Shown piece after piece: positions 2,002 through 51,742 of a stretch of DNA of 64,000 nt. The notes beneath the pieces are model-generated. The model was not told the DNA's origin. It was given only the letters and a program-made list of their open reading frames with translations, and did not search any database. The position numbers were made by a program, and so were the translations under genes. This stretch comes from Escherichia coli (GTDB lineage: Bacteria > Pseudomonadota > Gammaproteobacteria > Enterobacterales > Enterobacteriaceae), in the NCBI RefSeq assembly GCF_041248615.1, contig NZ_CP158426.1; one strand, 5' to 3'. Numbering within the stretch: the stretch's first letter is position 1; every line of letters begins with the position of its first letter.

Positions 2002-2164
2002 AGCTCCTCCTTAATGACAGGGTTGCGACGCCCTGATTCTCTTCAGGGTGAATATTAAAGATAACACAAACATCGCGTAACGATTTGATAACAACCCAAA
2101 TTGATAAAAGAGGAGAAACCTTGTGGCAAAGCAAATGAAAACCCCGCCGCAGCGGGGTCAGGTA

Positions 2165-2260
2165 TCAGTGAGTAATGATCCAGAGGAATTCGGCCCAGAA
2201 GAGCATCGACAGAGAAAACGCGCCCATCCAGGACCAATATTTCATATTTGTGTTGATCAT
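2165..2260 (-). CDS. Small hydrophobic protein, 31 aa (MINTNMKYWSWMGAFSLSMLFWAEFLWIITH), about 160 bp upstream of acnA
   Basis: Short reverse-strand ORF with one predicted transmembrane segment, below the 60-aa track cutoff; resembles the small membrane proteins annotated upstream of acnA in K-12 (ymiA/yciX family region), exact name not certain. Confidence 0.4.
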   Translation of the reverse strand: MINTNMKYWSWMGAFSLSMLFWAEFLWIITH

Positions 2261-2373
2261 AGGCTACACCTTTAACGGTTATTACTTTGTGTTGAGATAA
2301 CTCAACCTGTTATTGCTGCGGTGTATTAAAAGCCCTTTAATTCATTAAAAATGGGTAATAAGAATGATGATAA

Positions 2374-7940: not shown

Positions 7941-8192
7941 ATGAACAAAGAGACACAACCCATCGACCGCGAGACGCTGTTGAAAGAGGCCAACAAAATC
8001 ATTCGTGAGCATGAGGATACGCTCGCAGGGATTGAAGCCACCGGCGTCACGCAGCGTAATGGCGTGCTGGTATTTACCGGCGACTACTTTTTAGATGAAC
8101 AAGGATTGCCAACAGCCAAAAGCACCGCGGTGTTTAATATGTTCAAACACCTGGCCCATGTGCTTTCAGAAAAATATCATCTGGTTGATTAA
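7941..8192 (+). CDS. yciN: Uncharacterized protein YciN
   Basis: 83-aa [33 protein letters not shown]...; conserved position between topA and sohB. Confidence 0.85.
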
Positions 8193-8202
8193 AAATAAAT
8201 AT

Positions 8203-8227
8203 CCTCCGGCATAGCCGGAGGTTTTTC
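8203..8227 (+). terminator. Intrinsic terminator after yciN
   Basis: Hairpin CCTCCGGC-ATA-GCCGGAGG followed by TTTTTC, 11 bp after the yciN stop. Confidence 0.7.
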
Positions 8228-8900
8228 AAATGCGCCTGTAAGGCTCTGTTACCAGCCGCGCCCTAACAGGCGCATACGATCTGACATTTGCATTCAACTT
8301 CGTTACTTACGGCCCGTAAACGGGCTGCCCGGATAGGGAATCGATAACTGCTCCCCCATTTTATCCTCTTCAAGCTGGTGCTTTATGTAGTCCTGTATCT
8401 TCGCCGTGTTCTTACCCACCGTATCGACATAGTACCCTCGGCACCAGAACTCCCTGTTTCTGTATTTGAATTTCAAATCCCCAAACTGCTCGTAAAGCAT
8501 CAGACTGCTTTTCCCTTTCAGATATCCCATAAAGCCGGATACGCTCATTTTGGGTGGGATTTCCACAAGCATATGGATATGATCTGCGCAGCACTCTGCT
8601 TCCAGAATCCGTACGCTTTTCCACTCACACAGCTTTCTCAAAATACTGCCTATCGCCCTACGCTTCTCTCCGTAAAACGCCAGTCTTCGGTATTTCGGCG
8701 CAAAAACTATGTGATATTTACAGTTCCAGCGGGTGTGCGCTAAGCTCTTTTCGTCCCCCATTGGGACCCCCTTTTGATTTCTTGTTTGACACTTGCAGTT
8801 GCCAGACCGCAAGGTGTTTTAACAAATCAAAAGGGGTTTTAATAACTGGCTCAAAGCTGAAAGCTTTCCGGAACCCCCAGCCTAGCTGGGGGTTTTCTGT
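8228..8900 (-). mobile_element. IS200-like insertion sequence (IS200/IS605 family); boundaries approximate
   Basis: Contains an intact IS200-type tnpA, a structured 5' leader with an RBS-sequestering inverted repeat and a perfect terminal hairpin (8874..8892), plus subterminal palindromes near 8231..8273 and 8307..8330. This family makes no target duplication, so ends cannot be set precisely by eye. Confidence 0.8.
8303..8761 (-). CDS. tnpA: IS200-type Y1 (HuH) transposase TnpA, 152 aa
   Basis: Translation MGDEKSLAHTRWNCKYHIVFAPKYRR...HIHMLVEIPPK...GYYVDTVGKN is near-identical to the IS200 TnpA I recall (HuH motif HIHML, catalytic Tyr region). Track ORF 8303..8812 has an upstream extension; the Met at 8761 has a GGGGG Shine-Dalgarno. 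Confidence 0.9.
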   Translation of the reverse strand: MGDEKSLAHTRWNCKYHIVFAPKYRRLAFYGEKRRAIGSILRKLCEWKSVRILEAECCADHIHMLVEIPPKMSVSGFMGYLKGKSSLMLYEQFGDLKFKYRNREFWCRGYYVDTVGKNTAKIQDYIKHQLEEDKMGEQLSIPYPGSPFTGRK

Positions 8901-8908
8901 GCACAACA

Positions 8909-8935
8909 AAACGCGAGGTCTTAGCCTCGCGTTTG
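8909..8935 (-). terminator. Putative intrinsic terminator downstream of sohB
   Basis: Hairpin AACGCGAGG-TCTTA-GCCTCGCGTT followed by a T-run on the minus strand, directly after the sohB stop at 8940. Confidence 0.6.
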
Positions 8936-8939
8936 TCTT

Positions 8940-9989
8940 TTACATCAATGGTTTTTGCCCCCGCTGCCACCAGCGTAACAACAATCGATCGGCGCTCTCT
9001 GCCGCGCTGCCGGTGAATCGGTCAATGAGTCGTTTACGCTGCATATAGCGTACATTGACCACTTCACGGCCTTCCATCAGGCTAAGAATAACTTCATCAC
9101 TGGTGTTGATTTCATCAACCAGGCCTTTCTCTACCGCCTGTTGTCCGTACCAGTGTTCACCCGTTGCCACCTGATCAATATTCAGAGACGGACGCATACG
9201 CTTCACAAAATCTTTAAATAACTGATGCGTTTCGTTCAGCTCTTCGCGGAATTTCTCCCGCCCTTCTTCGGTGTTTTCACCCAGCAAAGTCAGCGTGCGC
9301 TTATACTGCCCGGCGGTGTGCAGTTCGATATCAATATCTTTGCTTTTCAGGAAGCGGTTAAAGTTGGGCATTTGTGCCACCACGCCAATGGAACCCACAA
9401 TAGCAAACGGTGCGGAAACAATTTTGTCCGCCACACAGGCCATCATGTAACCGCCACTGGCAGCAACTTTGTCTACCGTAACAGTTAAAGGAATGTTTTT
9501 ATCACGCAGACGCTGCAGCTGCGAAGCCGCCAGCCCGTAACCATGCACCATGCCACCAGGGCTTTCCAGACGTAGCACAACCTGATCCTGCGGTTTGAAT
9601 GCTGCGAGTACCGCCGTTATCTCTTCACGTAGCGAGTTCACTTCATGGGCGTCCATGCTGCCTTTAAAATCCAGCACCCAGACGCGAGGTTTACTGTCAG
9701 TTGCCACCTCGCCCAGTTTGGCTTTCGCTTTTGCTGCTTTCGCTTCTTGCTTGTGCTTTTTCTTCTGCGCTTTGTGCCACTGTTTTTGCTGATGTGAGTC
9801 CATCAGCGCCGCGGCCAGTTCTTCTTTCATCTCCTTATACTGTTCGCTGAGATTGTTGACCCGTAACTCGCCACGCTGGCGTTTATTACGTTGAGCAACA
9901 TTGACAATAATGGCGGCAATCGCCGCAATCGCTAGCACAACGGTAACGATTTTCGCCAAAAACAAACCATATTCAGACAACAATTCCAC
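8940..9989 (-). CDS. sohB: Probable periplasmic protease SohB (S49 peptidase family)
   Basis: 349-aa ORF; N-terminal TM segment and ClpP/SppA-like core; conserved position. Confidence 0.93.
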   Translation of the reverse strand: MELLSEYGLFLAKIVTVVLAIAAIAAIIVNVAQRNKRQRGELRVNNLSEQYKEMKEELAAALMDSHQQKQWHKAQKKKHKQEAKAAKAKAKLGEVATDSKPRVWVLDFKGSMDAHEVNSLREEITAVLAAFKPQDQVVLRLESPGGMVHGYGLAASQLQRLRDKNIPLTVTVDKVAASGGYMMACVADKIVSAPFAIVGSIGVVAQMPNFNRFLKSKDIDIELHTAGQYKRTLTLLGENTEEGREKFREELNETHQLFKDFVKRMRPSLNIDQVATGEHWYGQQAVEKGLVDEINTSDEVILSLMEGREVVNVRYMQRKRLIDRFTGSAAESADRLLLRWWQRGQKPLM

Positions 9990-17740: not shown

Positions 17741-17785
17741 ATGAAAGCAATTTTCGTACTGAAAGGTTGGTGGCGCACTTCCTGA
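17741..17785 (+). CDS. trpL: trp operon leader peptide ([14 protein letters not shown])
   Basis: 14-codon ORF with tandem Trp codons TGG TGG at 17768..17773. Confidence 0.95.
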
Positions 17786-17827
17786 AACGGGCAGTGTATT
17801 CACCATGCGTAAAGCAATCAGATACCC

Positions 17828-17856
17828 AGCCCGCCTAATGAGCGGGCTTTTTTTTG
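17828..17856 (+). terminator. trp attenuator (3:4 terminator hairpin plus U-tract)
   Basis: AGCCCGCC-TAAT-GAGCGGGCT followed by TTTTTTTT, between trpL and trpE. Confidence 0.92.
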
Positions 17857-51003: not shown

Positions 51004-51088
<85 letters not shown>

Positions 51089-51122
51089 TCTCAAGCATTA
51101 CCTCAAAATTTGAATTACCCCT

Positions 51123-51207
<85 letters not shown>

Positions 51208-51742
51208 TCACTTTCAAAAGTCCCTGAACTCTCAAACGAATCCGTAATTAAATATTCTGCCCAAGCGGGGAAGGATGAGAAGCTTCGACCAAGGTTCGAC
51301 TTGAGCGCCAGCGAGAGAGCGTGGCCGCAGGCAACGACCCGAAGGGCGAAGCGCGCAGCGCTGAGTAATCCTTCCCCCACCACCATAACTTTCAAAAGCC
51401 CCGGAATTCTCAAACGAATCCGCAATCAAATATTCTGCCCATGCGGGGAAGGATGAGAAGCTTCAACCAAGGTTCGACTTGAGCGCCAGCGAGAGAGCGT
51501 TGCCGCAGGCAACGACCCGAAGGGCGAAGCGCGCAGCGCTGAGTAATCCTTCTCCCACCACCATCACTTTTCAAAAGTCCGTGAACTCTCAAACGAATCC
51601 GCAATTAAATATTCTGCCCATGCGGGGAAGGATGAGAAGCTTCGACCAAGGTGCGACTCGAGCGCCAGCGAGAAAGCGTTGCCGCAGGCAACGACCCGAA
51701 GGGTGAAGCGCGCAGCGCTGAGTAATCCTTCCCCCACCACCA
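51208..51742 (+). repeat. Three tandem 178-bp repeat units distal to tyrV (rtT / tpr region)
   Basis: Units at about 51208..51385, 51386..51563 and 51564..51742, each ending in the tRNA-Tyr 3' terminal sequence AATCCTTCCCCCACCACCA; contains a protamine-like basic ORF. Confidence 0.9.

Follow-up and report, generated by a model that had tools for sequence, protein, structure and literature searches.

The region analyzed here lies in a 64,000-nt stretch of the Escherichia coli chromosome (the window) and consists of the left end of an intact IS200 element together with its 5′ leader; the element is a member of the IS200 group in the IS200/IS605 family. The complete element occupies positions 8194..8905 on the minus strand, contains one gene, and sits between sohB (8940..9989, minus strand) and yciN (7941..8192, plus strand), with topA as a further neighbor; the own terminator of sohB (8934..8909) directly adjoins the IS200 left end. 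Copies at seven other loci share sequence from TGTGCACAG (8905) to ...GGAGGATATTTATT (8194) and diverge beyond both points. In the empty site of E. coli K-12, in which 35 bp separate the convergent sohB and yciN genes, the junctions fall at the same points as these limits. The T at 8906 is ambiguous and may belong to the element or to the target, and the K-12 alignment puts the insertion at 8194..8906. Comparison of the filled site with the empty site revealed zero duplicated bases, i.e., no target-site duplication, and the two tips of the element, TGTGCAC... and ...ATATTTATT, are unrelated, i.e., they form no terminal inverted repeats. The copies at other loci and the K-12 empty site together thus define an element of about 712 bp that lacks both of these features. 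Of 5,426 complete E. coli genomes, 2,641 (about half) contain sequence matching the element, and 118 complete E. coli genomes carry this exact insertion at the sohB/yciN site. The 1.3 kb surrounding the insertion site were 100% identical to two complete E. coli chromosomes, and a second locus carries an identical copy of the element (H26, 100%).

The size and content of the element are those of its group (~700 bp, a single open reading frame, no tnpB), with tnpA as the sole gene supported by homology. This gene (8303..8761 on the minus strand, stop codon included; ATG at 8761..8759) encodes an intact 152-aa Y1 (HUH) transposase that matched the Pfam family Y1_Tnp (PF01797) over profile positions 2-121 of 121, with an E value of 7.9e-37 and 126.5 bits against a cutoff of 23. 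The catalytic residues are in place, both the HUH motif H61-I62-H63 and Y125, the residue altered in the catalytically dead mutant Y125F (PMC4513863). The preliminary description of this DNA had allowed for a transpositionally silent copy; silence is the general view of IS200 in the literature, and the TnpA of the present copy is intact. At this locus RefSeq lists the tnpA coding sequence only (WP_000502112.1), named just "IS200/IS605 family transposase", and the locus should therefore be annotated as IS200 with an art200 gene.

An Rfam family also covers the leader. RF01405 (STnc490) matched minus-strand positions 8771..8894 at full length (model positions 1-124 of 124), with 146.4 bits against a gathering score of 56. 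The match lies on the tnpA sense strand, beginning at the terminator hairpin and ending shortly before the Shine-Dalgarno (SD) sequence (IS200 nts 12-135). The STnc490 small RNA (sRNA), from which the family takes its name, is antisense and spans nts 154-64 (Sittka et al. 2008). The match should thus be read as an IS200 left end on the sense strand, not as the strand of the sRNA.

Beuzon et al. (1999) is reportedly among the studies behind the leader system of Salmonella IS200. That leader and its antisense RNA art200 have been characterized in detail (Sittka et al. 2008; Ellis et al. 2015, PMC4513863; Ellis et al. 2017), and published coordinates were converted to the window by the relation nt N = 8906-N. 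Under this conversion the published IS200 features coincided exactly with features of the window. The elements of Salmonella enterica (IS200F and the LT2 copies) have the same architecture and numbering, with a hairpin at nts 12-34, an inverted repeat at nts 69-138, the tnpA ATG at nt 145 and the art200 start at nts 153/154. Their TnpA is 97% and their leader 96% identical to those of the window copy. Both arms of the lower stem described below, the SD AAGGGGGU, the A-rich tract with its (ARN)3 motif and Hfq footprint, and the art200 start are identical to those of IS200F. Within nts 1-200, four substitutions relative to IS200F lie in the 11-nt left tip (nts 4, 5, 7 and 8); beyond the tip, there are differences at nt 54, in the upper stem (nts 92, 114, 115, 118 and 119) and in a spacer (nt 177), and nothing else. 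The E. coli element IS200C, about 96% identical over its whole length, differs at two positions in nts 1-200, and IS1541A of Yersinia pestis, which has the same element family and leader, differs at 15; none of these differences falls in the lower stem or the SD.

Subterminal hairpins are present at both ends on the tnpA sense strand (left, 8894..8872; right, 8221..8203). The left-end hairpin, AACCCCCAGC-TAG-GCTGGGGGTT (8872..8894, minus strand; IS200 nts 12-34), was recognized in the preliminary description as a perfect 8-bp stem with a 3-nt loop at 8874..8892 at the end of the element. It is read exactly there, with a perfect G+C core at 8892..8874 that two further A-T pairs extend to 10 bp, and it lies 11 nt inside the left terminus at 8905. 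No second occurrence of the hairpin sequence exists in the 64-kb window, where 0.00 chance matches are expected; folding predicts -18.7 kcal/mol for the sense and -20.7 kcal/mol for the antisense strand. It is followed by UUUUCU on the antisense strand and by only UU on the sense strand, so that by sequence rules only the antisense orientation would give a good intrinsic terminator; a generic terminator scan called the left-end hairpin on neither strand. The right-end hairpin, CCUCCGGC-UAU-GCCGGAGG (8203..8221, minus strand), lies 9 nt from the right tip (8194), and TTTTT follows it on the plus strand.

In the single-strand "peel and paste" transposition attributed to TnpA in the IS200/IS605 family, subterminal hairpins are recognized as DNA by the Y1 transposase, a role that is established family knowledge. 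By analogy, the left hairpin is most likely also the left-end DNA hairpin recognized by TnpA. IS608 and ISDra2 resemble IS200 in having a Y1 HUH transposase, no terminal inverted repeats or target duplication, and one strand that carries a subterminal hairpin at each end, and they, too, insert 3′ of a short target sequence similar to the right tip; unlike IS200, they also carry tnpB, and their hairpins are imperfect. The left hairpin of IS608 is 19 nt from the tip, compared with 11 nt in the present IS200. It is somewhat probable that the terminal hairpin was selected mainly as a single-stranded DNA signal bound by TnpA, as in IS608 and ISDra2, with its role as a terminator secondary, a possibility that complements rather than replaces control of transcription. 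Consistent with this, the sense strand lacks a U-tract after the left hairpin, and the right-end hairpin on the same strand is of like design: CCTCCGGC-TAT-GCCGGAGG on the right and CCCCCAGC-TAG-GCTGGGGG on the left are identical at six of eight arm positions, with both differences compensated. The design with CCNCCNGC and a 3-nt loop is repeated at both ends across the family, and a left hairpin agreed slightly more with the right hairpin from the same element (4.27 of 7 positions) than with right hairpins from different elements (3.94), a level reached in 404 of 10,000 permutations; this co-variation is weak, and several of the right-end hairpins in the comparison were picked noisily. On the other side stands the terminator activity itself, since the nts 12-34 hairpin is described as a bidirectional rho-independent terminator in experimental reports, as cited in PMC4513863 and PMC2515195.

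Downstream of this hairpin, the leader contains an inverted repeat that buries the ribosome-binding site. On the minus strand, CCCCUUUUGAUUU (8836..8824) pairs with AAAUCAAAAGGGG (8780..8768), and this pairing covers the SD that precedes the tnpA ATG (8761). The SD reads AAGGGGG(U) at 8773..8766, and the complementary CCCCTTTT reads 8836 to 8829. The 5′ arm of the lower stem, which contains the anti-SD, is ACCCCUUUUGAUUU (8824..8837), preceded by AAAA (8841..8838); the upper stem-loop, with the apical loop UCUGGC, extends over 8781..8823; and the 3′ arm, with the SD, covers 8766..8780. The two lower-stem arms and the upper stem-loop were supported by folds and covariation, and the 3′ arm also by sequence. 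An A/C-rich tract with an (ARN)3 motif, AACAAGAAA (8786..8778; AAC-AAG-AAA), lies within the region equivalent to the published Hfq footprint (-33 to -17, PMC4513863), which corresponds to 8794..8778 in the window. Two small hairpins complete the leader on the minus strand: AAAGCU-UUC-AGCUUU (8853..8867), at the 5′ end of the tnpA transcript, which is part of the Rfam consensus structure, and GUCCC-AAUGG-GGGAC (8753..8767), with the AUG in its loop, which appears in both the minimum free energy (MFE) and centroid structures. The published tnpA transcription start at about nt 40 (PMC4513863) would lie at about 8866.

RNAfold gave -65.3 kcal/mol for 8900..8740 on the minus strand, compared with -44.2 +/- 4.1 kcal/mol for 200 dinucleotide shuffles (z -5.13), and no shuffle was as good. 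In the predicted structure, the long stem 8836..8824/8780..8768 is topped by the upper stem-loop, the 10-bp terminal hairpin appears in both the MFE and the centroid, and SD positions -14..-5 of this leader are paired with a probability of 1.00. The preliminary description had proposed that the SD pairs with the upstream arm of a long inverted repeat and had placed the arms at about 8771..8790 and 8821..8836. Stable SD pairing was indeed predicted by folding, and the proposal was further borne out by covariation in the lower stem and by its identity with the lower stem of Salmonella IS200; the arm positions proved correct to within a few bases. The published inverted repeat that sequesters the SD (nts 69-138, PMC4513863) corresponds to 8837..8768. 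Using toeprinting and lacZ fusions with Salmonella IS200 in E. coli, Ellis et al. (2015, PMC4513863) demonstrated that mutation of the lower stem increases the 30S toeprint 20-fold and tnpA-lacZ expression 50-fold; the lower-stem (LS) mutations, at -69 to -75, correspond to 8830..8836. Deletion of hfq raised tnpA expression about 5-fold, also in E. coli (PMC4513863). These data, together with the sequence identity, support the view that SD occlusion by the inverted repeat would also operate in the present copy.

A second control is encoded on the opposite strand. The starts of art200 were mapped at nts 153/154 (PMC4513863), which correspond to 8753/8752 on the plus strand, and the product is 90 nt long. 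From these published data, art200 (STnc490) is predicted as an RNA of ~90 nt at 8752..8842 on the plus strand. The antisense small RNA that had been anticipated here has a candidate gene, for which both the mapped starts and the length fit 8752/8753..8842. When folded, plus-strand 8753..8842 formed a 5′ hairpin and a long stem, then UUUUAA (-38.1 kcal/mol). Since UUUU follows the stem at the published 90-nt length, the predicted 3′ end of art200 looks like an intrinsic terminator. Being encoded in cis, the predicted RNA has perfect complementarity to tnpA, and knock-down of art200 increased tnpA expression about 13-fold in E. coli (PMC4513863). The art200 promoter has been described as having a good -35 and an almost unrecognizable -10 element (PMC4513863). 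We suggest that it corresponds to the plus-strand hexamers TTTACA (8717..8722) and TAAGCT (8741..8746), which are separated by an 18-nt spacer (promoter 8717..8746), the -10 ending 7 nt before 8753; these hexamers fit the published description, and their putative assignment is our own. A generic promoter scan of 8100..9100 called no promoter, the art200 candidate falling below the threshold of 9/12. That outcome is compatible with the weak and atypical IS200 promoters described in the literature and is evidence for neither side. Nucleotides 139-200 match Salmonella IS200F except for the spacer position 8729 (nt 177), so that the art200 start and promoter region are conserved.

The terminal hairpin, the SD stem-loop and the art200 gene at this locus are already known biology, and the left end that they form is intact and typical of IS200. 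Their mechanism is likewise known, from tests of a near-identical element in E. coli. We are highly confident that the region is an intact IS200 left end with layered controls of the transposase as known from IS200, namely, a hairpin reported to act as a terminator, an SD stem-loop, the predicted art200 and a putative Hfq site. The G+C-rich hairpin at 8894..8872 would stop transcription entering from outside, here from sohB, and by family analogy may double as the left-end DNA hairpin for the Y1 transposase. In tnpA mRNA initiated near 8866, the anti-SD CCCCUUUU (8836..8829) would pair with the SD and thereby block 30S binding. The weak-looking plus-strand promoter would produce, from 8752/8753, the ~90-nt art200, which would end at the U-tract after the complement of the stem-loop; art200 would then pair with the tnpA leader and the first three codons and so impose a second ribosome block, and Hfq would bind the A-rich tract just upstream of the SD. 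The sequence, thermodynamics, covariation, borders, intact TnpA and Salmonella identity come from the present analysis, and termination, repression, art200 expression and Hfq binding from the literature. The present copy presumably behaves like the published IS200, with a hairpin that would also have a role at the DNA level.

The leader may also have functions beyond the element. In Salmonella, it is processed to stable species of ~90 and ~110 nt (5'tnpA, tnpA-90 and tnpA-110) that repress invF and other regulons, and the authors of the 5'tnpA work predict that such trans regulation is widespread in enterics (PMC5435999, PMC12594629). It is conceivable, if doubtful, that the main product in E. 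coli is likewise a trans-acting sRNA from the tnpA 5′ end that regulates host genes, with control of the transposase vestigial. The 96% identity of the leader to that of Salmonella and the retention of IS200 in about half of the complete E. coli genomes (the 2,641 mentioned above) would suit such a role. However, E. coli lacks SPI-1 and invF, and hence, the Salmonella trans target is absent from the present host. Moreover, the substitution at nt 54 (8852) lies inside the segment nts 51-58; with nt 40 taken as +1, this segment is equivalent to tnpA nt 12-19, whose mutation abolished invF pairing in Salmonella.

Evolutionary comparison provides support for the leader structure that is independent of the published IS200 work. 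The sample comprised 79 loci with TnpA relatives (52-97% identity) from viral contigs, together with copies from E. coli, Salmonella, Yersinia and Klebsiella. Folds of single sequences kept the same layout where BLAST fails to align the leader, i.e., a G+C-rich hairpin with a 3-nt loop close to the left end and, after it, a long stem with the SD in its 3′ arm. When 40 leaders were aligned with MAFFT, blind to structure, the terminal hairpin emerged from RNAalifold, and each of its 7 recovered pairs showed compensatory changes; the long stem was not recovered from this unfitted alignment, because indels in the upper stem shift the register. A covariance model built from 14 gap-free leaders brought 36 distinct leaders into register; the model search had been tightened, as matches at E<=1 had included antisense and right-end sequences. 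In the model-guided alignment, 92.3% of cells held standard pairs, compared with 74.0% in column shuffles, of which 0 of 500 reached the observed value. Since this alignment is fitted to the model, the fairer comparison is that with partners slid by 1-3 columns, for which 39-49% of cells were paired. Among leaders down to about 60% transposase identity, 35 of 42 pairs had changed on both sides, and in the lower SD stem 15 of 15 had done so. The upper stem was paired in 89.5% of cells, and the small hairpin at 8853..8867 in 85.9%, with double changes in four of its six pairs. In the class with 50-70% TnpA identity, the SD was paired with a mean probability of 0.83, at least 0.75 in 21 of 26 leaders; because leaders with shuffled upstream sequence already reached 0.62-0.67, this measure is weak by itself.

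Which strand the inverted repeat serves was addressed by its wobble pairs. In the upper stem, 28 G-U against 6 A-C cells indicated a bias toward the sense strand, mostly at one conserved pair, whereas the lower stem was balanced between strands (9 G-U vs 7 A-C). Directly 5′ of the anti-SD arm lies an A-tract, which on the antisense strand is a U-tract following the stem; it was present in 27 of 29 close leaders and in 23 of 32 distant ones, compared with 12% for random 7-mers. The wobble pattern and the A-tract fit a segment used on both strands, for SD occlusion in the mRNA and as the body and terminator of the antisense RNA. A one-sided alternative, that the long inverted repeat is kept mainly as the art200 body and intrinsic terminator and that SD occlusion on the sense strand is a by-product, appears improbable. 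The absence of a strand bias in the lower stem and the family-wide conservation of the A-tract are in its favor, as are the UUUU exactly where the 90-nt art200 would end and the plus-strand fold of the same region, which at -64.8 kcal/mol (z -5.9) is about as good as that of the sense strand. Nevertheless, the 3′ arm always holds the SD at a fixed distance from the start codon, even in otherwise diverged leaders, a feature that is predicted by occlusion and not needed by a terminator, which argues against a repeat maintained mainly for art200. The upper stem, moreover, prefers sense-strand wobble, and mutations in the lower stem de-repress translation independently of art200 (PMC4513863). That the palindromes arose by chance or are decayed, functionless remnants is scarcely credible: a chance or decay origin was rejected on the z scores of -5.1 and -5.9, the expectation of 0.00 for the hairpin and the strong covariation, and decay is contradicted by the intact TnpA, the intactness of both ends and the identical copy H26 (100%).

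Occlusion of the ribosome-binding site by structure and by antisense RNA is not confined to IS200. In IS10 (RNA-IN/RNA-OUT, fold-back inhibition) and IS50, as in IS200, a cis antisense RNA blocks the transposase ribosome-binding site, and structure hides this site in some transcripts (compare PMC4513863). Neither the transposases (DDE in IS10/IS50, Y1/HUH in IS200) nor the ends are related, however. The promoter of IS10 itself lies inside the repeat, and occlusion therefore affects read-through transcripts only; in enterobacterial IS200, in contrast, the own transcript of the element is occluded as well.

The family comparison yielded one new testable lead on this difference, an internal promoter that may be present in distant relatives and lost in enterobacterial IS200 and that bears on the near-immobility of the latter. 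In the 26 distinct leaders from distant relatives (50-70% TnpA identity), the extended -10 sequence TGnTATAAT was matched at 6/7 or better in 21 and perfectly in 13, compared with rates of 5.4% (>= 6/7) and 0.17% (perfect) in shuffles. This box lies on the tnpA sense strand and directly follows the anti-SD arm on its 3′ side. A match of 6/7 was reached by none of the 29 enterobacterial-type leaders, including that of the present copy; the lead as read from sequence would concern the distant relatives, not the present copy. A promoter in the box would start transcripts inside the stem-loop, without the anti-SD arm, and these would be translatable, so that only read-through transcripts would be occluded, as in IS10/IS50. 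Without the box, as in enterobacterial IS200, all tnpA transcripts would start upstream (about nt 40) and be occluded. We therefore raise, tentatively and as something short of likely, the possibility that in the wider IS200 group the SD stem-loop originally told the element's own transcripts from read-through and that the box was lost in enterobacterial IS200. In the literature that was searched, neither an internal promoter of IS200 nor a model by which it would discriminate against read-through was described. If true, this would help to explain the near-immobility of IS200 and its retention as an sRNA locus. In the present copy, the sequence aligned with the box is TGATTTGTT (8828..8820), and the best nearby match is TGTTAAAAC (8824..8816).

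The Rfam family RF01405, named STnc490, matches the window at 8771..8894 on the minus strand, which corresponds to the tnpA sense strand (IS200 nucleotides 12-135) and takes in the terminator hairpin upstream of the tnpA start, whereas STnc490/art200 itself is an antisense RNA extending over IS200 nucleotides 154-64 (PMC4513863). The RF01405 match is a marker of the IS200 left end, and not of the strand or extent of the small RNA. In the stem-loop that contains the Shine-Dalgarno (SD) sequence, the motif GGUCUG(G/C)CAAC of the apical loop (the loop lies at 8803..8808 in the window) was kept in sequence, and not in pairing alone, down to approximately 58% TnpA identity; in our alignment of IS200-type leaders, columns 139-148 included one invariant column and several nearly invariant ones. 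Terminal loops have been implicated in the initial contact between art200 and tnpA (Ellis et al., PMC4513863).

In distant IS200-group relatives, the sense strand of tnpA has a near-perfect match to an extended -10 box (TGnTATAAT) immediately 3' of the anti-SD arm. A match of at least 6/7 was present in 21 of the 26 distant leaders, versus 5% in shuffled sequences, and the carriers (loci L054, L093, L063, L070, L056, L085, L064, L073, L069 and L086, among others) have the box approximately 50-61 nt upstream of their own ATG. The box was absent from all 29 enterobacterial leaders, including the window copy, in which the counterpart of the site (8828..8816) reads TGATTTGTT / TGTTAAAAC.

A T-rich pentanucleotide (TTTTT, TTATT, TTTGT or TTTCT) nearly always adjoins the IS200 left end, as in the left flank of the element in the window (8906..8934), in the IS200-type loci L002, L005, L006 and L007, and in many viral contigs from IMG/VR. 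It is usually located where the hairpin of a rho-independent terminator belonging to the gene upstream comes to its end, in the window the sohB terminator, and it is similar to TTATT, the right tip of IS200 itself. These flanking sequences suggest that IS200 insertion prefers the T-tracts of terminators as a target.

On the other side of the element, IS200 cuts off yciN (stop codon 8190..8192) from the bidirectional terminator that yciN and sohB have in common in K-12. What now lies 11 nt past the yciN stop codon is the right-end hairpin of IS200 with TTTTT after it (8203..8221, plus strand), and a generic terminator scan scored it as terminator-like on this strand. The right-end stretch (8193..8226, plus strand) also gave a partial Rfam match to the 3' end of the Yersinia small RNA Ysr202, presumably because the Ysr202 model contains an IS1541 right end.

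Two IS200 copies were arranged head-to-tail with zero spacer at L003 (NZ_CP151026.1) and at L035 (positions 268-406 and 978-1116), so that the right tip ...ATATTTATT of one copy runs straight into the TGTGCAC... of the other. Approximately 277 plasmid records contain orphan IS200-like left ends, approximately 140 nt long and lacking tnpA, such as the E. coli IncF plasmids L011 and L014, where they adjoin iss, and the Klebsiella plasmid L012. They are 75-77% identical to the IS200 left end in the window, with several substitutions in the terminal hairpin relative to that copy, and still match the covariance model of the leader, at 76 and 45 bits. Other Rfam matches in the window, namely the enterobacterial small RNA STnc180 (2131..2333, minus strand), the trp operon leader (17762..17855, plus strand), and two tRNAs followed by three RtT repeats (51004..51742, plus strand), are all ordinary for this part of the chromosome.
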